Assembly: GCA_964016885.1 (NCBI GenBank)
Contig: OZ024764.1
Span: 9,238,001 to 9,302,000 of the forward strand
Reading direction: 5' to 3'
DNA from: Eledone cirrhosa
Taxonomy: Eukaryota
Length of the DNA stretch: 64,000 nt
Of the stretch, positions 41,701 through 62,190 are shown one piece after another. Numbering within the stretch: position 1 is the stretch's first letter; each line of letters opens with the position of its first letter. Under the pieces are notes generated by a model. That model had not been told where the DNA came from, ran no database searches, and saw only the letters and a program-made list of their open reading frames with translations. The position numbers and the translations under genes were made by a program.

Positions 41701-41741
41701 TAATAACAATAATATCGTTTGATTAAACCCACTAGAGTAAG

Positions 41742-43728
41742 ATGCTTAAAAGAAAAACTCCATCTTCACTATCCAGCCACAATAAAGGGTTTTCTCCGAG
41801 TAAGAGGAAACTTTGTACGTTCTGCGAGAAAATCCATTGTGAAGACTTGACCCATGATGGAGAGTCAGACACCAAGGGGAAACCATTCCGCTGTCAGTTC
41901 TGCAATGAGGTGTTTTCTATTTCTTGCATGTTTGTCAAACACATGGAGACCCACCTCGGTAAAAGTCTGTACCGTTGCGAGTTCTGTGGGTTTCTGTTTG
42001 TCGACTTCTTTGATCTGCTAACCCACCGCAAGGAGCACGTGTCGTTCGTGTGCAAGTTCTGCGATAAACACTTCAATGACGATGAATCGCGCAGGAAACA
42101 TTCTGTGATGTTCCATGGCGCGGCAGCAACGGCAGTGGCTGCTGGCGTCGTCGTCTCAAAGAAAAGGCATCATTCGTCGTCGTCGTCATCATCATCATCA
42201 TCATTATCATCGTCGTCTTTGTCTTCTGCTGCTGCCGAGGAAGCGTTGAGGGTGAGCAAACGAAAGTTCTCTATGAAGGTCGACGAAATCCTACAGAGAA
42301 ACACGGCTGTTTTGAAGCCGTTCCATTCCTGCAGCATCTGCTACAAGAACTTCCCTCAGCTTTCGCAGTTGCTCGTGCACAAAAAGACACACACCAAGGA
42401 GAAACCGCACAAGTGCAATGTCTGCGGCAAGAATTTCAAACACGACAACGTCTTGAAAGTGCACCAGCAGTTGCATCAACAACAACACGCTACTACTAGT
42501 ACTACTACTACTGCTACTGCTTCTACTACCATTAATACTCGCTCTTGTGCGACAATCTTGAAAATGCACCGAAAGTTGCAACAACAACAACAGCAGCAGC
42601 AGCAACATGCTACTATTATGGCTAGTACTACTAATACTACTACTACTACCACTTCTGCTGCTATTAATATTCGCTCTGGTGTGACCACTGTCGCTGTAAA
42701 TGACGGCAAGTGCAAGCTGTCGATGTTGCACGATGACAGCAATGACGACAGCAGCAGCTGCAACGCTTCTCGGAAGGACCACACGGCGGGAGATGATAAC
42801 CGCAAGGCCGTCGTCGCGGCGATGAAAGAAAATGGGAACTTCTTGACCGCCACCGCCACTGCAGCCCATGTGACTCCGGTGCTCCTCGCGACGCAGCTAG
42901 GCCCCGCAACAATGGCCAACGGTGGCAGCCTCCTCCTGTCGGAGCAGGGCACCACGCAGGTGCAGAAAAAACTGGGCCCCCTTTTGGAGAACCTAAAGCC
43001 AGCCCACCTCGGCGCCAAAACCGTGTACCTGCTAAGCAAGCCACAATCACAGCTGGTGACCCAAGGGGCCGAGCTCAATGTCTGCCCCTCGAGTTCTCCA
43101 CCGCTGTTGAACGTACAAAGGAACTCCGTGATCCACCAGGTAAAGCAGGAAGGGTCGGGACTGTGCGCCGACGGGGCACTTCCGTTGAGGGCTGTCCCCA
43201 ACGGAGCGCCAGACGGCGCAGCCAACATCCCAACAGACTCCCCGCAGTTTCTAGGCAACTGCTGCGTTGCCCTTGACAACAAGACGACGCAGAAGCACCA
43301 GCTCGGAGTGGTTACCGTGACGACCGACCCCGACGACGACGACGACAACAACAGGTTGTTCACTGGACCACAGAACGTCGACATTGAAAGCAACGGGAGG
43401 AGACACGTCGGACCCATGCTTGCCACGGAGAACTACCTCATCCTGAAGTTGCCCTCCACGGAAACGAACCACCACCACCACCACCATCACGAACACCACG
43501 GCAACCAGCCGAAGAAGGCGCGGAGCTTCGTCGCTGCTGCCGGCGGTGCTGATGCTGTTGTTGCGCAGCAGCAGCAGCAGCAGCAGCAGCGGCACATGAC
43601 AGCGGTGGTGCAATCGTCGTGCAGCGACATTGCGCCTGAGACGGCTGATGCGACAGAATTCAGAATCACAGAGACTGTCAGTCTAAGCAACAGCAATAGC
43701 AACAACAACTACAGTATCAACAGCATCT

Positions 43729-43764
<36 letters not shown>

Positions 43765-44166
43765 GCAACCACAGTGAGATGGGGACGAGCCCTCAGCCCA
43801 TTAACTACACAAAGCCGAAAACTAGATCGTGCAAGACCGAACCTTTGGAGTTGAAACTGGAGCCCTACCAAGACGAGCCCTTTATTGGAAACCCCTATCA
43901 AGATACAGACCGCGACCGGGACCGAGACCACAGGGAGCTTGGACTCAGCGACAGGGACCTCCTGTGTAGGGCACAACCTCTGTCTTTAGTCAAATCAGAA
44001 CCTGTGGAAAGTCCACCATCACCAACGCCATTACCATCATCACCATCACCACCATCACCAATACTACCATCATCATCATCACCATCAGTAATACCATCAT
44101 CACCATCACCATCAGTAATACCACAATCATCATCAACATCATTAAGACCATCATCACCATCAGTAA

Positions 44167-44198
<32 letters not shown>

Positions 44199-47100
44199 CC
44201 ATCAATAATACCACCATCATCATCATCAGTAATACCGCCACTACCATCATCATCATCAACACTAGAAGACGGTGGAGGAGAAGGAAGAGGACGAAGAAGA
44301 AGAAGAAGAGGTTTTAAAGAATCGGTCAAGGGGTCAGTGATAGACAGCAGCGATAGGGAGCCATGTCGGGTCCTGTGTAGGGGACAGCTGGTGGGAAATC
44401 TACGCACACCATCATCATCGTCATCATCACAAGAAGAGGATGGAAGGGGAGGAAGACGAAGAGAAAGAGGGTCCGAAGAAACAGTTAAGGGGTCAGTCGA
44501 AGACAACAGCGATAGGGCCCCGTGTGGGGACCAGCCGCTGTCCTTAGTCAAATCGGAACCGGTGGTAAAAAATTCACCCTCACCGCCACCACCATCATCA
44601 TCACTACCATCACCAACACCACCATCATCACCACTAATACCACCACCACCATCACCACCATCAACACCACCAACACCAACACCACCACCACCATCATCTC
44701 TAATACCACCATCAACAACACCACCACCACCACCACCAATAACACCACCACCACCATCAACACCACCAACACCAACACCACCACCACCATCATCTCTAAT
44801 ACCACCATCAACAACACCACCACCACCACCAATAACACCAACACCAACACCACCATCACCAACACCAACACCAACAACACCATCACTAATACCACCACCA
44901 CCACTATCATCATCACCACCAATAACACCACCATCACCATCATCACCACCACCATCACCAATAACACCACCACCATCATCACCACCAATAACACCACCAT
45001 CTCCACCACCACCACCATCATCACCACCAATAACACCACCACCACCATCATCACCACCAATAACACCACCACCACCATCACCAATAACACCACCACCACC
45101 ATCATCACCACCAATAACACCACCACCACCATCACCACCACCAATAACACCACCACCACCACCATCACAAGATGGTGTAGGGGGAAGGGGAAGAAGAGGG
45201 GGAGGCGTTGCAGATCTCCCCCGGTCTGTCACTGGGCCTCCCTCTGTGGTGTCCCGAAGGTCGGGGTCGCTGCAGAGCAACACACCCACCGCCACCACCA
45301 CCACCACCACCACCACCGCTGCCACTACCACTGCTACTGATGCATATGATGGTGGTGGCGGTGGTGGTGGTGGTGGTGGTGGTGGTGGCGGTGGCGGTGG
45401 GGTTACTGCTGCTGCTGACAGTGCTGAAGTTGTGGCGGCTGCTGCTACTACTACTACATCTACTGCTGGTGGTGGTGGTGGTGGTGCTACTACTACTGCA
45501 GCTGCTGACGGTGGTGGTGGTGGTGCTATTACTACTACTACTGCAGCTGCTGATGGTGGTGGTGGTGCTGCTATTACTACTACTACTGCAGCTGCTGACG
45601 GTGGTGGTGGTGCTGCTATTACTGCAGCTGCTGACGGTGGTGGTGGTGGTGCTATTACTACTACTACTGCAGCTGCTGACGGTGGTGGTGGTGGTGCTGC
45701 TATTACTACTACTACTACTACAGCTGCTGATAGTGGTGGTGGTGGTGCTACTACTGTTGCTGACGGTGGTGATGGTGGTGCTACTACTGCAGCTGCTGAT
45801 AGTGGTGGTGGTGCTGCTATTACTGCTACTACAGCTGCTGACGGTGGTGGTGGTGCTGCTACTACTACTGCAGCTGCTGATGGTGGTGGTGGTGGTGCTA
45901 CTACTACTGCTGACGGTGTTGGTGGTGGTGGTGCTACTGCTGTTACTACTACTCCTACTACAGCTGCTGATGGTGGTGGTGGTGCTACTACTGCTGTTAC
46001 TACTACAGCTGCTGACGGTGTTGGTGGTGATGCTACTACTGCTGTTACTACTACAGCTGCTGATGGTGGTGGTGGTGATGCTACTACTGCTACTACAGCT
46101 GCTGATGGTGGTGGTGGTGGTGCTACTGCTACTGCAGCTGCTGATAGTGGTGGTGGTGGTGCTACTACTACTACTACTACAGCTGCTGACGGTGGTGGTG
46201 CTACTACTGCTACTACAGCTGCTGATGGTGGTGGTGGTGCTACTACTGCTGTTACTACTACTACAGCTGCTGATTCTGATGGTGGTGGCGCTGCTAATGT
46301 TACTACTACTACTACTACAGATACTACTCCTACTGCTGATTCTGATGGTGGTGGTGCTGCTAATGTTACTACTACTACTACTACTACTACTACAGATGCT
46401 ACTACTACTACTGCTGCTGCTACTACTACTAGTGCTGCTGATTCTGATGGTGGTGGCGGTGCTAATGTTACTACTACTCCTACTACTACTCCTACTACTA
46501 CTACTACAGAAGCTACTACTACTACTGCTGATTCTGATGGTGGTGGTGGTGCTAATGTTACTACTACTCCTACTACTACTACTACAGAAGCTACTACTAC
46601 TAGTGCTGCTGATTCTGATGGTGGTGGTGGTGCTAATGTTACTACTACTACTACTACTACTACATGTGGTGGTGATGGTGGTGATGGTGGCGGTGGCGGT
46701 GGTGGTGTAGAAGAAGAAGTCGGAGTTGGTGTCGGAACGTCAGTGAAGCTGGAACGAGAGTGGCAAGAATACGAACCAGCAGCAATGAAAACGACGACTG
46801 CGATGAGTAATGAGGCAATGTCGGCGATGAAAGAGGAGATGAGAACCTCAGCGACAGAGATGACAGAGAAATACGATGAAAGAACGATGTCGGCGATGAA
46901 AGAGACGACAGGGAAATGTGGAAAATCGATGTCGGAGATGAAAGAGATGACAGGGAAATGTGGAAAAGCGATGTCGGAGATGAAAGAGATGACAGGGAAA
47001 TGTGGAAAAGCGATGTCGGAGATGAAAGAGATGACAGGGATATGTGGAAAAGCGATGTCGGCAATGAAAGATGTGATAAAAGATGCAATGAAAGAGACGA

Positions 47101-49874
47101 CAGGGAAATATGAAAAACCGATGTCGGCGATGAAAGATGCAATGAAAGAGACGACAACGACAGAGAAATGTGGAAAATCAATGTCGGAGATGAAAGAAGC
47201 GATGACGGATGTGATAACGATGACAGGGAGAAGCAAAGAATCGCTGATAGAAATGAAAGATGATATGACGAGGACGAGAAAGACGAACGCGATGACAGAG
47301 GGAAATGAAATCTGGGAGACATTGTCAGAGAAAGATGTGACAAGAACGAGGAAAGTGTCAGCGATGAAAGAGACGAGCAAAGATTTGACAATGAAAGCGA
47401 TGAGTGAGACGAACAAAGATTTGACAATGAAAGCAATAAAAGAGAGAAGCAATGATTTAACATCAGCAATGAAAGAAACGAGCAAAGATTTGACAATGAA
47501 AGCAATAAAAGAGAGAAGCAATGATTTAACATCAGCAATGAAAGAAACGAGCAAAGATTTGACAATGAAAGCAATAAAAGAGAGAAGCAATGATTTAACA
47601 TCAGCAATGAAAGAAACGAGCAAAGATTTGACAATGAAAGCGATGACAGATACGACCAAAGATTTGGCAATGAAAGCGATGACAGATACGACCAAAGATT
47701 TGGCAATGAAAGCGATGACAGATACGACCAAAGATTTGGCAATGAAAGCGATGACAGAGAGAACTGAAGATTTAACACCAGCAATGAAAGGAAATGTGAT
47801 AAGTGCGAGAACATCGTCTACCTTGACAATGACAGGGAAAAGCGAAGAATCTATATTGGAGACGAAAGAAGACCCGGTGATGACAACGAGGAGAGCGTGG
47901 ACATCGCCGATAAGAGTGACGACAGAGGGAGAGAAAGACTTATCGCCACAGTTGCCGTCATCTCTTCTGTCATCGCTGTCGTCGTCAGTGAAACAAGAAC
48001 CAGTGTCAGAGGAGTCGCAGTTAGAATTAGATCCGGTCGAAGAACAGACGACGAGGACGACGAAAGCGGCGATGAAGAAGACGATAGATCTTGTCACCGT
48101 GGTGATGAAGCATGAAGAAGAAGTGGAGGAAGAAGAAAGGGTGGAAACTCCAGATAGCATCGCTTCGACAACAACGAGGAAGAGGGCGACGGTGGAGACG
48201 ATAATCGACGATGCGGTCGCCATGGAGATAAAGAAAGAGGAGGAGGAGGAACGAGGTGAAAGAGAGGACAGTGTCGCCGTGGAAACAGAAGCGTCGTCGA
48301 CGGCAACAAGGAGGACGAAGAGAAGAAAGCTGATGATACCTGGTGATGTGGTTACCATGGCGATCAAAGAGGAGCCGGATGTGGAGGAGGAGGAGGAGGA
48401 AAGGGAGGACAGTGTCGCCGTGACAACAGAAGCGTCGTCGTCGTCGACGGCGACGAGGAAGAGAAGAAAGCTGATGACACCTGACGATGTGGTTACCATG
48501 GCGATCAAAGAGGAGGAGGAGGAGGAGGAAAGGGAGGACAGTGTCGCCGTGACAACAGAAGCGTCGTCGTCGGCGACGAGGAAGAGAAGAAAGCTGATGA
48601 CACCTGACGATGCGGTTACCACGGCGATCGAGGAGGAGGGAGGAGAAGAAGAAGACAGAGAAGGCAGTGTCGCCGTGGAAACAACAGAAGCGTCACCGAC
48701 GGCAACGAGGAAGAGGAAGAGGGGGAGGAGGTGGAGTGGCAAGCCAGAAGGGAGCGCGCAGCGAGATAGTGTACTCCGAGATGTCGTAGACGACAACAAG
48801 GGTCGGGCAGAGGTGGCGGCGGCGGTGAAGGAGGGGGAAGGAGGGGGAGGAGGAGAAAGAGAAAAAGACGAAAAGAACAAAGGACTTGAAGAGGAAGTAG
48901 GAGGAAGGAGAGGAGAGATGCGAGGAGGAGGAGGAGGAGGAGATTCAAGCTGTGTCGACTGCGGGAAGGCCCACAGCCAAGCGCTGAGCGAGTTCCTCGC
49001 GCAGAGCCCCAAGGACAAGCCGTTCAAGTGCCAAGTGTGCGGGGACACCTTCTCAGTCGGTTGCCTCTTCAGCAGACACATTGAGAGCCATGAGGAAGTG
49101 AAGGGCCGTATCCTGTACCAGTGCGAAGTGTGCGGGGCCATATTCGAGAAGTTCCTGTCGCTGTTTTCACACCGACGGCAGATGCACAGTGACTCGCAGC
49201 AGCAGCAGCAGCAGCAGCAGCGATGCGACGCGACATCGGTTGCGATGGGTTACGTCTGCACCCAGTGCCACCGGGCGTTCATCTGCGAGTCGGACCTGAA
49301 GCGCCACACGCGGCTGGTGCACTACGTGGAGAAGGCGTTTGTCTGCGAAATCTGCGGCAGATCGTTCTCGCAGCGGTGCAACCTCGTCTTCCACCGTCAC
49401 ACGCACACAGGGGAGCAGCCGTTTGCCTGCGAACTCTGCGGCAAGCGTTTCGCTCGACCGGGCAACCTCGCCATCCACCTGCACACCCATTCGCAGCCGG
49501 CGCCGCAACTCCCTCTCTCCGTGCAACTGAACAACAAGTGCAGTGCACACGGTGATAAGCCGTTGAAAATAAAGCACCAACAGCTCAAGAACCACCACAT
49601 GCAACAACGCAGCTGCAGCGACAGTGATGCACCGTACAGGTGCGACATATGCGGAGATGGCTACTCGAAGTACAACGAGCTCAAGGAGCATGTGCAGCTG
49701 CACCAAGCGGGCGACGGCAAGCTGGCGTTCAAGTGCAACAACTGCGGCAAACAGTTCCTGCATTCGTACATGCTGCTGCGACACAAACTCTCGCACAAGG
49801 GCCGGCTTTGCCAGTCGTCCGGTCGTTCGATCAGTCGGATAGTCAACACCCCACAACACTCGGACACCAGCTGA
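41742..49874 (+). CDS. large C2H2 zinc-finger protein (2710 aa): 5 N-terminal and 7 C-terminal fingers separated by Pro/Ser-, Gly/Ala/Thr- and Met/Lys/Glu-rich repeat tracts
   Basis: Uninterrupted ORF with canonical fingers (e.g. FVCEICGRSFSQRCNLVFHRHTHTGEQPFACELCGKRF), repeated PLSLV-type and psi-KxE motifs. Small in-frame introns in the repeat tracts cannot be excluded. Confidence 0.85.
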
Positions 49875-53686: not shown

Positions 53687-53727
53687 CTCTCTATATATAT
53701 ATCTATATCTCTCTCTCTATATATATA

Positions 53728-53759
<32 letters not shown>

Positions 53760-53857
53760 CATATATCTACATATATATATATATAAAGAAAAAAAGATGA
53801 AATCGAAAATGCAACTGGAGTCTTATTTTAAAAAAAATATATATATTTATTTGGTTC

Positions 53858-53893
53858 CTTTACCGGTTTCGCAGTTCTTCTGCTTTTCAAAAG
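53858..53893 (-). ncRNA. minimal type I hammerhead ribozyme, U3-A8 variant (left inverted pLTR)
   Basis: Minus: CTT-TTGAAAA-GCAG-AAGAA-CTGC-GAA-A-CCGG-T-A-AAG; palindromic CCGG loop on helix III, GUA triplet. Confidence 0.7.
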
Positions 53894-54357
53894 TAGAGTT
53901 GAGATGGAGGGTCTGTGGTTTTTCTCAGTTCTTCTGCTTTTCAAAAGTAGAGTTGAGATGGAGGGTCTGTGGTTTTTCTCAGTTCTTCTGCTTTTCAAAA
54001 GTAGAGTTGAGATGGAGGGTCTGTGGTTTTTCTCAGTTCTTCTGCTTTTCAAAAGTAGAGTTGAGATGGAGGGTCTGTGGTTTTTCTCAGTTCTTCTGCT
54101 TTTCAAAAGTAGAGTTGAGATGGAGGGTCTGTGGTTTTTCTCAGTTCTTCTGCTTTTCAAAAGTAGAGTTGAGATGGAGGGTCTGTGGTTTTTCTCAGTT
54201 CTTCTGCTTTTCAAAAGTAGAGTTGAGATGGAGGGTCTGTGGTTTTTCTCAGTTCTTCTGCTTTTCAAAAGTAGAGTTGAGATGGAGGGTCTGTGGTTTT
54301 TCTCAGTTCTTCTGCTTTTCAAAAGTAGAGTTGAGATGGAGGGTCTGTGGTTTTTCT
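53872..54357. repeat. 9 identical copies of a 54-bp pLTR sub-segment
   Basis: cagttcttctgcttttcaaaagtagagttgagatggagggtctgtggtttttct x9. Confidence 0.95.
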
Positions 54358-54775
54358 CACAAACAAGGACCATATTCGGGAGGAAGAAGCAGAAATGCCG
54401 GCGGTAGGTCGGGAAGCCGAGGTCGGGGCAAGCCTGCTGCCAGGGAATCAAGCTTGAATATACATCCTGAGTGGGAAGACCGCATAGTGAATTATCTAGT
54501 CCATCAGACTCACCCTGTAAAGACCATGGAACTGGCACGTGGTCCTGTAAGTGTTCGTTCACGCAGAGAAGTGAATCCGACTTTGTACAGCATGGATAGA
54601 CGTGGTTTGACAAGAAAGCACGGTATGCAGCCACCAACATGGGTTAAAGCACGGTATGCAGCCGCCAACATGAGTTAAAGCACGGTATGCAGCCGCCAAC
54701 ATGGCTTATTGCCGCTCCACCTGCATCTCATACAAGTTATAACCAGAATGAAAGTCATTATTCAAGTAGTCCAGG

Positions 54776-54989
54776 GTGGTGGATTGGCAGTATCGATAGA
54801 GAGTTGGACGCCATGCTTAGCAGCATAGGGTTACGGCCCTTTATGATCTGAGTTCAAATCCCGCCGAGGTTAACTTTGCCTTTCATCCTTACGGGGGTCG
54901 ATAAAATAAAGTACCAGTCACACACTGGGGTCGATTTAATCGATTTTCCCCTCCCCCAAAATTGCTGGCCTTGTGCTTATATAAGAAAC
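54776..54989 (+). mobile_element. SINE family 1 inserted in the ADAR fragment
   Basis: 20-bp TSD cattattcaagtagtccagg at 54756-54775 and 54990-55009. Confidence 0.9.
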
Positions 54990-55476
54990 CATTATTCAAG
55001 TAGTCCAGGAATGTACCAGCATGGTCCAGTGTCAGGAACACCACCAAATTTCTATGCTAATAACCGCGAAGGTTATAGAGGACAGAAGACTCCCAATAAT
55101 AATTACCAGCGTTCGAAACGATCAACCTATAGAAGTGAATGGCATGGTTTCTGTCCACCATTTTATATATACTCAGAAAGTAAGAGTGAATCTCTAATCT
55201 ACAGTCACAGTAGTAAAGATACTGAAATTCTCTCTATTGGAACCACTAGTTCTCCAAATAGATTACGCTCAGAAAGTTGCAACCCGGATGATTGTGAAGC
55301 CCTGGAAGCAGTGATTGCTAATTAACCACATGGTGGTGGGTATGGCCAGAGCTATTCAGGACATTTCTCTGTAACGTCTGAATCTAAACAAAGTGGTAAG
55401 CCACGAAGGAGAAATTGTGATAACTTTAACATCCAAAATTCTTCAAAAGGTTCCATGATGCCATTAAAAAAATAAT

Positions 55477-55661
55477 TGTTTCTACTTTTGGCTCAAGGCC
55501 AGCAATTACCCCAGTGCATTACTGGTACTTTATTTTATCGACCCCCGTAAGAATGAAAGGCAAAGTTAACCTCGGCGGGATTTGAACTCAGAATGGCAAG
55601 GGACGTAACTCTATGCGTCAAAGCATGGCGTCTGACCCTCTACCGATATTGCCAATCCACC
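55477..55661 (-). mobile_element. SINE family 1 inserted in the ADAR fragment
   Basis: TSD gccattaaaaaa(a)taat at ~55460-55476 and ~55662-55677. Confidence 0.88.
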
Positions 55662-57257
55662 GCCATTAAAAAATAATGACAGGATGGTCATCCAACAGAA
55701 AAAGATGGAGGATGACCATGAAAGGCATTACGATGGAAGCCATCAATCATACCCTAGTAATTTTATGAACTATGCAAATCATTCTTTTGGAGATATGCCT
55801 GTTTGTTACCGTCAGATGGACCGAGAGGGTCCGGATGTGTCTCGCGTACACCTGAGTTCCTTGAAGAAAGAATCGAAGGACCACTCGCCCCACGATCAAA
55901 TCTCTCCCAAACGGAACTCAAATATAAAAGCTGGCAATTCTGACCCTCATGACCCACATGCTAAAATCATTTCCTTCCTTCCTTCCTTGATAAAACCATG
56001 AATGGTTCTGCTAAGTCGCGTGAAATGGCTAAACATACAGGCCTTTCTCTGGAAGAAACTCAAAAGTATTTGCATAGTTTAAGTAAAAAGAAAATAGTCA
56101 CTACTATTGGTGAAGATATTTATATAATGGCAAAGGATGCAGTCAGTTATGAAAATGAAATCCCTGCTGGAACAGGTTCTTCATCTGCGAACTCTGCCAT
56201 GTCCCGTCAGTTTTCTGGTGGAAACCGGCAACCTCCTGCTCCTCCACATGTTCTCCTGGTGGACAATGATAAGTACATCGCATTTTTCCAGTGAAATAAC
56301 ATATCTTGCTGAAGAACACATTCGGCACCCAGGAAATGAACACACAACCTTACGATTGTAAGCCGAACACACTAACCACTAAGTGACGCTCCTATGTGTA
56401 AATATATATTTTTAGCGATACAACAAACATACAGGCCTTTCTCTGGAAGAAACTCAAAAGTATTTGCATAGTTTAAGTAAAAAGAAAATAGTCACTACTA
56501 TTGGTGAAGATATTTATATAATGGCAAAGGATGCTGCCAGTTATGAAAATGGAATCCCTGCTGGAACAGGTTCTTCATCTGCAAACTCTGCCATGTCCCG
56601 TCAGTTTTCCTCCACATGTTCTACTGGCGGACAATGGCATCAGCTCCAGCAGCATGAAAAGTGCTTATTGCCAAAGTATTAGTTCCCAAAAACAATCTGG
56701 GTCATCAGGGGACACAGAAATCAGGATCAAATCAGATAAGTAGAAATTCACATCTACCTCCTTCCCCTCATGAGCTCCTTGCAAAGGATCCAGTCTTTAA
56801 AGAAGATGTCGCTGTGTCCAATTCAAACAATTCTTCTAAGGAATTCAACCAGTTGTCATCATCTTCGTCAGCATCCTTGACATCCTCAACGTCAAAGAAT
56901 TCTAGGTGGAACAATAACACTGCATTGGTAGAAAGCTCAAGAGCACCAGCTACTAATTCCACTTCAATGTCATCAACTACATCATTTGCTCCAAGCACTA
57001 AGCAAAGTAATTCAAGTGCTAAGCAGACATCATCGTCGGAACAAACTGCTTCAAATTCTAAAGGCTCTGGGTCAAAAGGTTCCTCAGGCTCCAAGCAAGG
57101 ATCTTCTAATTCCAAATCAGGTGCTTCGAGCTCAAAACAAAGGGTCAATAGTCCAAAGCAAAATGCTTCAAATAATCAATCATCTCAGTCTAATTCAAAT
57201 TCCACTGTTAACTCAAACAGATGTGAGAAAAACCACAGACCCTCCATCTCAACTCTA

Positions 57258-57293
57258 CTTTTGAAAAGCAGAAGAACTGCGAAACCTGTAAAG
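57258..57293 (+). ncRNA. minimal hammerhead ribozyme, U3-A8 variant (right pLTR)
   Basis: CTT-TTGAAAA-GCAG-AAGAA-CTGC-GAA-A-CCTG-T-A-AAG; the loop palindrome is broken by one substitution. Confidence 0.65.
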
Positions 57294-57946
57294 GAACCAA
57301 ATAAATATATATATTTTTTTAAAAATAAGACTCCAGTTGCATTTTCGATTTCATCTTTTTTTCTTTATACTTTCACTCGTGTAGGACACCTCGGTTATTT
57401 TTCATTTTGTAAAAAAAACCTCACTTTCTAATATATATATATATATATATTTGAGTTTGAAGGTGAAACACATGTCCTCGAAAATGGTTTATTAACTATG
57501 GAGTAACTTATATATATATATATACACATATACATATATATATTGTTATACTTGGGGAGGGTCATATTGTTGTAATACTATTGCCAGAAATAATAACAAA
57601 TTCATCGCCGTCATATACATATATATACATATATGTATATATATATATACATATATATGTATAGAGAATTAGTATATTTACCAACATATGCGTACAGATG
57701 TACACTAATGCTACCAAATACATAAGTTATGTCATAGTACCTAGGTGGTTCTATGCAGGGTTCTATGATGTGGTATTTATTTAGGGTGGTATATATGAAA
57801 GACGTAAAATAAGAAAATTTTAAAAATTAAAAATTAACTTACTTACTAGTATATATATATATATATAGATATATTTATATATGTGTGTGTATATAAAATA
57901 AAATAAAATAAATAAGTCAAATGTTTAAAATTTGGCTTCGTTTATT

Positions 57947-61653: not shown

Positions 61654-62190
61654 ATAAAATATTAAACAAATAATGAATAAAACAATGAAACAGTTCCTTA
61701 TATTAAACAAAAAAAGTTCATTATTTAACGATCGTTTCTAGGATATATATGTGTTAGAATTGGCATGCATATTCAACAGATCTATGTACAAAATTATACA
61801 AAATTATACAAACTATCAAGATTAAATATACATACCAAACACACATATACGCCGTCTTCAGAAATAATAATGTGTTTGGTATGTATATTTAATCTTGATA
61901 GTTTGTATAATTTTGTATAATTTTGTACATAGATCTGTTGAATATGCATGCCAATTCTAACACATATATATCCTAGAAACGATCGTTAAATAATGAACTT
62001 TTTTTGTTTAATATAAGGAACTGTTTCATTGTTTTATTCATTATTTGTTTAATATTTTATCTTGACTCTGTATACCGTTTATCTTTCACCGAAAGTGATT
62101 TTTCATTACATCTCTTCTTTCCATGATATCCGGAATACATTGAGTTCTTCATACGGATTGGACACTACCGTAAACTCTTGGTAGATTTAT
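61654..62190. mobile_element. family C Penelope-like pLTR forming a 190-bp-arm palindrome; complete hammerhead on minus strand at 61718-61870
   Basis: 61654-61843 is the reverse complement of 61871-62060. Minus: TTATTATTT-CTGAAGA-[long]-GAA-ACGATCGT-T-AAATAATGA. The downstream tail is homologous to 27560-27730. Confidence 0.7.

Follow-up and report, generated by a model that had tools for sequence, protein, structure and literature searches.

The window analysed here, a 64,000-nucleotide (nt) stretch of the Eledone cirrhosa genome (contig OZ024764.1, positions 9,238,001 to 9,302,000), contains a copy of part of the spliced mRNA of ADAR1, the host RNA-editing enzyme, enclosed by two head-to-head ends of a Penelope-like element. 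These ends are pseudo-long terminal repeats (pLTRs), and the copy between them is single and disabled; probably, it was made when the reverse transcriptase (RT) of the element jumped onto ADAR1 mRNA in the course of one insertion. Coordinates are those of the window unless another locus is named.

The captured segment is bounded by a 151-nt inverted repeat (53782-53932 and 57219-57369), the arms of which are 97% complementary; the right arm is 61 nt longer than the repeat, with a tail at 57370-57430, and the outer ends of both arms abut (TA)n. This bears out the description in an earlier note on this DNA, namely, an ADAR1-like segment within an inverted repeat, with about 60 bp of additional tail on the sense 3' arm and no RT or GIY-YIG endonuclease inside: no frame encoding either was found between the arms. 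The arm length given there, about 148 bp, is close to that of the repeat but overlooks a tandem array that brings the left arm to 580 nt. The principal features are as follows.

53718..53785, no strand: (TA)n target microsatellite, left, 34 copies (Tandem Repeats Finder)
53782..54361, minus strand: left pLTR arm, tail-less, pLTR positions 4-151, expanded by the 54-nt array
53867..54359, minus strand: 9.1 tandem copies of a 54-nt unit with 99% matches, of which every one contains the 5' half of the hammerhead only
54360..54444, plus strand: 3' 85 nt of ADAR1 coding exon 1, identical to parent C1:146352860-146352944, beginning with the final base of codon 27; the start codon is absent
54445..57219, plus strand: first 1,924 nt of ADAR1 exon 2 (parent C1:146421850-146423773), 94-98% identical by block, stopping before the double-stranded RNA (dsRNA)-binding domain
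54469..54642, plus strand: Z-alpha domain (Pfam z-alpha, 26.8 bits with a cut-off of 21; compared with the parent, 27.1 against 33.7 bits)
57219..57430, plus strand: right pLTR arm, positions 1-212, including the 61-nt tail
57430..57449, no strand: (TA)n target microsatellite, right

The cargo comprises 2,009 nt of parent sequence, corresponding to ADAR1 codons 28-696, in sense orientation relative to the tail-bearing arm. Exons 1 and 2 are joined to the base, and the 68,905-nt GT-AG intron between them is gone; because the joint is exact and 68.9 kb of intron has been removed, the template was spliced mRNA, and the comparison with the parental gene that the earlier note had suggested thus points to an RNA intermediate. 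The cargo shares 3 nt of microhomology (ACA) with the left arm and 2 nt (CA) with the right arm, there is no (TA)n between either arm and the cargo, and no poly(A). The hallmarks of pseudogenes made by long interspersed nuclear elements (LINEs), that is, poly(A) and the 3' end of the mRNA, are missing; instead, the cargo ends inside exon 2, fused to pLTR position +1. The copy has no start codon, no dsRNA-binding domain and no deaminase, so the catalytic domain was indeed left out of the capture.

The parent gene is ADAR1, with Z-alpha, a dsRNA-binding motif and a deaminase in one gene: its exon 2 is a 750-codon open frame that encodes Z-alpha and the start of the dsRNA-binding motif and has ADAR chains as its best relatives of solved structure, and the deaminase exons lie 21-39 kb downstream of this exon. 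The assignment of the captured protein to ADAR1 therefore stands. The earlier note's estimate of about 2.9 kb of coding sequence is right as to origin, but the segment is not coding throughout: besides the parent sequence, it contains internal duplications and three repeat insertions, and a stop codon and frameshifts interrupt it. As for Z-alpha content, one domain passes the Pfam cut-off, but a second winged-helix-like stretch in the serine-rich region (L034:7852-8058 in the parent, 55950-56140 in the window) has no established Z-alpha identity. It matches Pfam FaeA (E 7e-5) and, weakly, the Z-domains of PKZ (E 0.4); in a single-sequence model, with a predicted local distance difference test score of 75, the wing is absent, and there is no fold match at E 0.001.

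The Penelope-like family and its hammerhead-like motifs

The earlier note's identification of the arms as Penelope-type pLTRs is supported: the family is abundant, and elsewhere in the genome bodies encoding RT and GIY-YIG lie beside the same pLTR, among them elements with intact 775-amino acid RT and GIY-YIG frames. At L042, where the pLTR is 97.6% identical to the window arm, two pLTRs enclose disrupted frames for RT and GIY-YIG. Searching for the endonuclease portion produced 25,625 candidates, and among the 150 of these that were scored, 11 lie within 775-amino acid open frames. The four examples that were fetched (L143-L146) contain an RT, a C-x4-C-x2-C motif and a GIY-YIG domain next to the same pLTR. 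In the 775-amino acid frame of L143, RVT_1 scores 28.5 bits (E 1.5e-6), just below the cut-off of 29.6, and GIY-YIG scores 27.9 bits, above its cut-off. The pLTR flanks the element on both sides in L042, L144 and L145, and (TA)n follows the tail in 30 loci examined. The CX2-5CxxC motif before GIY-YIG and the microsatellite targets would fit the Neptune clade, although the motif is also common to Nematis and Naiad.

The family is very large and recently active, with at least 10,850 exact copies of a 34-nt core and many near-identical endonuclease copies. The window arms differ from the intact-frame copies at a two-base site beside helix I and, for that reason, belong to a different and probably older subfamily, that of L042. 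Two elements, L143:2207-5670 (C12) and L145:2231-5694 (C1), are young and full length; in both, a 409-codon frame precedes and overlaps the 775-codon RT-endonuclease frame in another phase, which hints at an intron or a frameshift, and this first frame has no Pfam match. By eye, frames at L146:591-1205 and L049:3761-4300 resemble GIY-YIG endonucleases of other Penelope-like families.

Each arm contains a UUGAAAA core (at 57261 on the plus strand and 53890 on the minus strand) and a GCAG/CUGC helix II, and matches a relaxed hammerhead descriptor of our own, modelled after PMC4209133, with the core boxes, a G-C-closed helix II, helix I and the NUH site present.

53861..53890, minus strand: minimal type I hammerhead-like motif, left arm, U3-A8 core, palindromic CCGG loop, predicted cleavage after 53861 (descriptor match)
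57261..57290, plus strand: minimal hammerhead-like motif, right arm, loop reading CCTG, most likely by mutation (descriptor match)

The same descriptor is satisfied by 14 of 5000 shuffled sequences. The earlier note's minimal hammerhead in each arm is therefore matched at the level of the descriptor, but no Rfam hammerhead was found in the arms at E up to 10 in three scans, and the isolated motifs fold no better than shuffles (z -0.25 and -0.87). The pLTR is too uniform for covariation, nearly all columns being 97-100% alike among 182 arms. The CCGG palindromic loop, likewise ascribed to both arms, occurs in the left one only. In the 3-Gb genome, exact copies of the 34-nt core number 10,850 with CCGG and 62 with CCTG, which makes a point mutation the most likely source of the CCTG in the right arm. 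An arm-specific loop variant (CCTG with the tail, CCGG without it) was considered and rejected as a search bias, given the same counts. Read by eye, the pLTR (57219-57390) also contains a donor-like GTGAG at +6 as well as a TAG-bearing pyrimidine tract around +165. Such sites would put the hammerhead inside an intron that is retained, an arrangement close to that described for Drosophila Penelope, in which the end of the intron overlaps the hammerhead.

Insertion geometry and proposed mechanism

The usual arrangement of the family was assessed in 22 head-to-head pairs, defined as a minus-strand core followed by a plus-strand core within 5 kb, which were taken from the first 100 places of the CCGG-core search. 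In 19 of the 22, one arm ends at position 151 and the other at 212. The arms abut in 12 pairs and are separated by a 42-nt element-derived palindrome in one; eight spacers are 96-100% element sequence, and one is foreign and starts with (TA)n (L117). Among 112 distinct sampled arms, 66 end at 212 and 28 at 151. On the 5' side, these arms are flanked by element sequence in 75 cases, by a microsatellite in 19 and by other sequence in 18 (the window among the latter), and all 19 with a microsatellite start at +1 to +9 (14 come from searches that favoured such starts, 5 do not). These starts, together with a TATA-like box 30 nt before +1, suggest that +1 is likely to be the RNA 5' end. The inverted, truncated 5' copy and the optional tail, which characterise endonuclease-bearing (EN+) Penelope-like elements, are found in the family. 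With its 151+212 pair set in (TA)n, the insertion in the window therefore follows the standard two-armed pattern, except that foreign sequence occupies the central joint.

In vitro, a Penelope-like element from an anole has two RT start sites, which define the tail, and both target strands are cut and extended, according to the experiments in PMC11167929. The reading we prefer is compatible with such a course of events: an intact element would have supplied the RT and the endonuclease in trans, the (TA)n target would have been cut and both ends primed, and the cDNA growing from the tail-bearing arm would have reached pLTR +1, the point at which many copies break off, then jumped to ADAR1 mRNA inside exon 2, continued into exon 1 and, finally, been joined to the other arm. 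Decay of the copy would have followed the insertion.

The main rival explanation involves the same single event, with ADAR1 cDNA coming from another enzyme, either a LINE RT or a polymerase active in repair, and filling the central gap via microhomology-mediated end joining. The short microhomologies at both joints are compatible with such a patch, LINE-type RT frames are common in the genome, and 8 of the 112 sampled arms have 14-42 nt of non-element filler between arms. By contrast, the absence of poly(A), the right joint located exactly at pLTR +1 and the polarity of the cargo, which is that expected from extension of the tail-bearing arm (although polarity alone would agree by chance half of the time), speak against patching, and we consider it rather unlikely.

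Far less probable, and largely refuted, is an origin by segmental duplication of genomic DNA, by unrelated insertions that landed by chance on either side of a retrocopy, or by an assembly artefact. The density of the family, with its 10,850 exact cores in 3 Gb, makes chance flanking conceivable, facing arms from separate insertions do exist (L117, L180), and the 54-nt array, 99% uniform, is known from the assembly alone. Yet the intron has been removed exactly, the arms meet the cargo without (TA)n and form the standard 151+212 pair, and the alleles and joints specific to the copy recur in contigs of runs X1 and X2. The earlier note had also raised the possibility that the same repeats flank the parental locus; no pLTR was found there in the 60 kb examined, which takes in both exons but not most of intron 1, and this argues against segmental duplication.

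Several observations weigh against an RT jump followed by simple decay. That the RT of the element copied the ADAR1 mRNA is inferred. Host mRNA between a 151/212 pair was found in none of the 22 unbiased pairs and in none of the 111 other sampled arms, and host cargo is accordingly not a habit of the family. The ratio pN/pS in the copy is 0.59 (42 non-synonymous and 20 synonymous changes; p 0.06 against neutrality, unpolarised and with parent-lineage changes included), so there may be weak constraint, and the 85 nt of exon 1 are unchanged. Furthermore, run X1, the kind of which is unrecorded, yielded six contigs identical to the copy, with depths of 56-94, which would amount to transcription if X1 is RNA.

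The survey for host captures covered the 22 pairs and 4 other loci as well as the 112 arms, 8 of which were traced about 10 kb upstream. L117 and L180 were rejected as host captures, since both arms end at 212 and the foreign spacers contain a fragment of another retroelement; L012 was rejected because its arms are not head to head.

Decay and possible expression of the captured copy

The amplified family and mobile Z-alpha decoy envisaged in the earlier note find no support. In all genome searches with the cargo and the Z-alpha family, the parent and the captured copy are the only two loci (these searches skip very common words, but the cargo queries themselves are not repeats), and pLTR and ADAR sequence with these junctions co-occur at the captured copy only. 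The copy differs from the parent by 62 distinct substitutions, a premature stop, frameshifting indels and three inserted repeats, two of which resemble short interspersed nuclear elements (SINEs).

54615..54708, plus strand: 31-nt triplication, shifting the frame directly after Z-alpha
54776..54989, plus strand: inserted SINE-like repeat with a 20-nt target duplication (54756-54775, 54990-55009), not in the parent exon
55323..55325, plus strand: premature stop, TAT to TAA
55477..55661, minus strand: second inserted SINE-like repeat, about 15-nt target duplication, 87% complementary to the first
56269..56424, no strand: third inserted repeat, part of it being 77-82% identical to four other stretches of the window

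After the third repeat, some 240 nt of parent sequence are present a second time, with 24 nt deleted. The two SINE-like copies (54775-54931 and 55508-55664) face each other 576 nt apart and are 87% complementary; any transcript that includes them and the pLTR arms would form two long dsRNA stems.

At the listed sites, all alleles in the contigs from the relatives X5 and X6 are of the parent type, and at five of these sites the window and its own parent agree against both relatives. The copy thus arose after the split from X5 and X6, with the qualification that contigs show presence, not absence. In run X2, the depth of copy-type contigs at 55252-55406 and 56622-56767 is about 7, compared to about 4 for the parent type, a difference that could reflect noise or a collapsed duplicate of the copy.

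One feature invites a functional interpretation.

53797..54678, plus strand: predicted chimeric open frame of 293 codons, with an ATG in the antisense pLTR, nine 18-amino acid repeats and then ADAR1 exon 1 and Z-alpha, up to a frameshift

The copy could, in principle, be expressed as a Z-alpha decoy or an RNA regulator of ADAR1, with either this frame or the inverted repeats of a transcript acting on Z-RNA sensing or editing. The frame runs from its ATG through the 54-nt array into Z-alpha, in which the N, Y, PP and W residues are kept. In X1, the pLTR depth is about 22 times that of the cargo, versus about 130,000 times in X2, which suggests that X1 is not genomic DNA. The X1 signal might, perhaps, represent the 3' extension of a zinc-finger gene on the same strand, the end of which, at 49874, is located 3.9 kb upstream of the copy. 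On the other side, the antisense frame with its ATG is a family-wide trait of the pLTR (the same frame is present in L043 and L144), neither kind nor strand is recorded for X1, and depth taken from contigs is an unreliable measure. In the first aligned block of Z-alpha, 5 of 7 substitutions are non-synonymous, including a Leu-to-Pro change, a 3-nt insertion adds a Gly, and the domain score drops from 33.7 to 27.1 bits. The domain shows no sign of constraint, its only ATG comes from the antisense pLTR, and there is a single copy. We find an expressed decoy or regulator very unlikely; probably, the captured copy is a relic rather than a working regulator.

A-to-G is the commonest change in the copy, with 16 cases, and 12 of the 13 listed sites are derived in the copy. 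The comparison with T-to-C (16/644 versus 7/492) gives a Fisher p of 0.29; relative to the neutral spectrum of element copies, under which 6.2 would be expected, p is 0.025 for the 12 polarised changes and 0.0007 when all 16 are counted. Tests of the neighbouring bases give no significant result (p 0.08-0.87). The excess is modest and possibly a fossil of RNA editing, and we regard it as a lead only. Self-editing of coleoid ADAR1 mRNA is described in PMC10278661 and PMC9068888; a check of supplements of PMC9068888 and PMC8382921 turned up no editing positions for octopus ADAR1, although further tables of these papers may list them. We give scant credence to the most far-reaching combination of these observations, a new, transcribed gene that originated from a single Penelope insertion, with a pLTR start codon, a hydrophobic 18-amino acid repeat and ADAR1 Z-alpha, the protein or inverted-repeat RNA of which would feed back on ADAR1, the A-to-G excess being a fossil of ADAR1 self-editing.

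Elsewhere in the window, the zinc-finger frame (41736-49874, 2,712 codons) has C2H2-type clusters at both ends and long low-complexity repeats between them, and a perfect 130-nt inverted repeat with a 27-nt spacer (61714-62000) reaches the edge of the scanned region.

Comparison with known systems

Processed pseudogenes made by LINEs show intron loss, truncation and later decay. The captured copy shares all three but has neither poly(A) nor an mRNA 3' end, and both of its ends are fused to the termini of another element. Minimal type I hammerheads and the arm motifs have in common the U3-A8 core variant, the G10.1-C11.1 pair, the palindromic helix III and loop, and the location in pLTRs; the motifs here differ in the 4-bp helix II, the 3-bp helix I (4 bp in the intact-frame subfamily) and the lack of an extra base between 9 and 10.1. 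The right arm is without the palindrome, and cleavage is a prediction from sequence.

As described in PMC10278661, squid ADAR1 has a first intron of about 75 kb and an exon 2 that encodes Z-alpha, a serine-rich domain and one dsRNA-binding motif. The parent gene is laid out alike, with a 68.9-kb first intron and the same exon 2 content; the captured copy stops within the serine-rich domain. As far as that paper goes, squid ADAR1 is reported without Z-beta, in contrast to the second winged-helix-like stretch of the parent gene.

Canonical EN+ Penelope-like elements of the Neptune and Nematis type, to which PMC8557442 (Craig 2021) assigns the Cys motif and microsatellite targeting, share with the present family the RT followed by GIY-YIG, CX2-5CxxC before the endonuclease, partial tandems, the inverted 5'-truncated copy, the optional tail and the (TA)n targets. 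The tail is 30-40 nt in that account, compared to 61 nt here, and the separate 409-codon frame that precedes and overlaps the RT-endonuclease frame in L143 and L145 is a further difference.

A close precedent is the non-ribosomal peptide synthetase gene framed by Pen3a pLTRs in Adineta vaga, a host gene moved in trans by a Penelope element (PMC3846280, Arkhipova 2013). Both cases involve host coding sequence between pLTRs with no internal element sequence. As presented there, the rotifer gene is complete, retains its introns and is flanked by two pLTRs in direct orientation, with a target duplication of 8 bp. The ADAR1 cargo, by contrast, is a spliced fragment truncated on both sides; its flanking arms are head to head within (TA)n, and a direct 5' pLTR is missing. 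The published Penelope captures that we found retain introns, for which reason an antisense or unspliced template has been proposed (PMC3846280); the captured ADAR1 copy shows that mature, sense-strand host mRNA can also be taken up by Penelope insertions, and suggests that both arms were primed from the two sides of one break. We found no Penelope retrocopy with a spliced fragment between head-to-head arms, and no octopus ADAR1 retrocopy, in the literature, with most subscription journals outside the coverage.

ADAR1 as the cargo looks accidental. With more than 10,000 pLTR copies and intact elements, this genome permits counting how often mRNA capture happens. Should the A-to-G excess match ADAR1 self-editing sites, which we consider possible but less likely than not, retrocopies would become a readable record of past germ-line editing in coleoids. 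The trans-mobilisation of host genes by Penelope elements is known, and a spliced fragment between head-to-head arms is a new variation on it: the single, disabled ADAR1 copy is a clean natural record of a Penelope insertion taking up mature mRNA.

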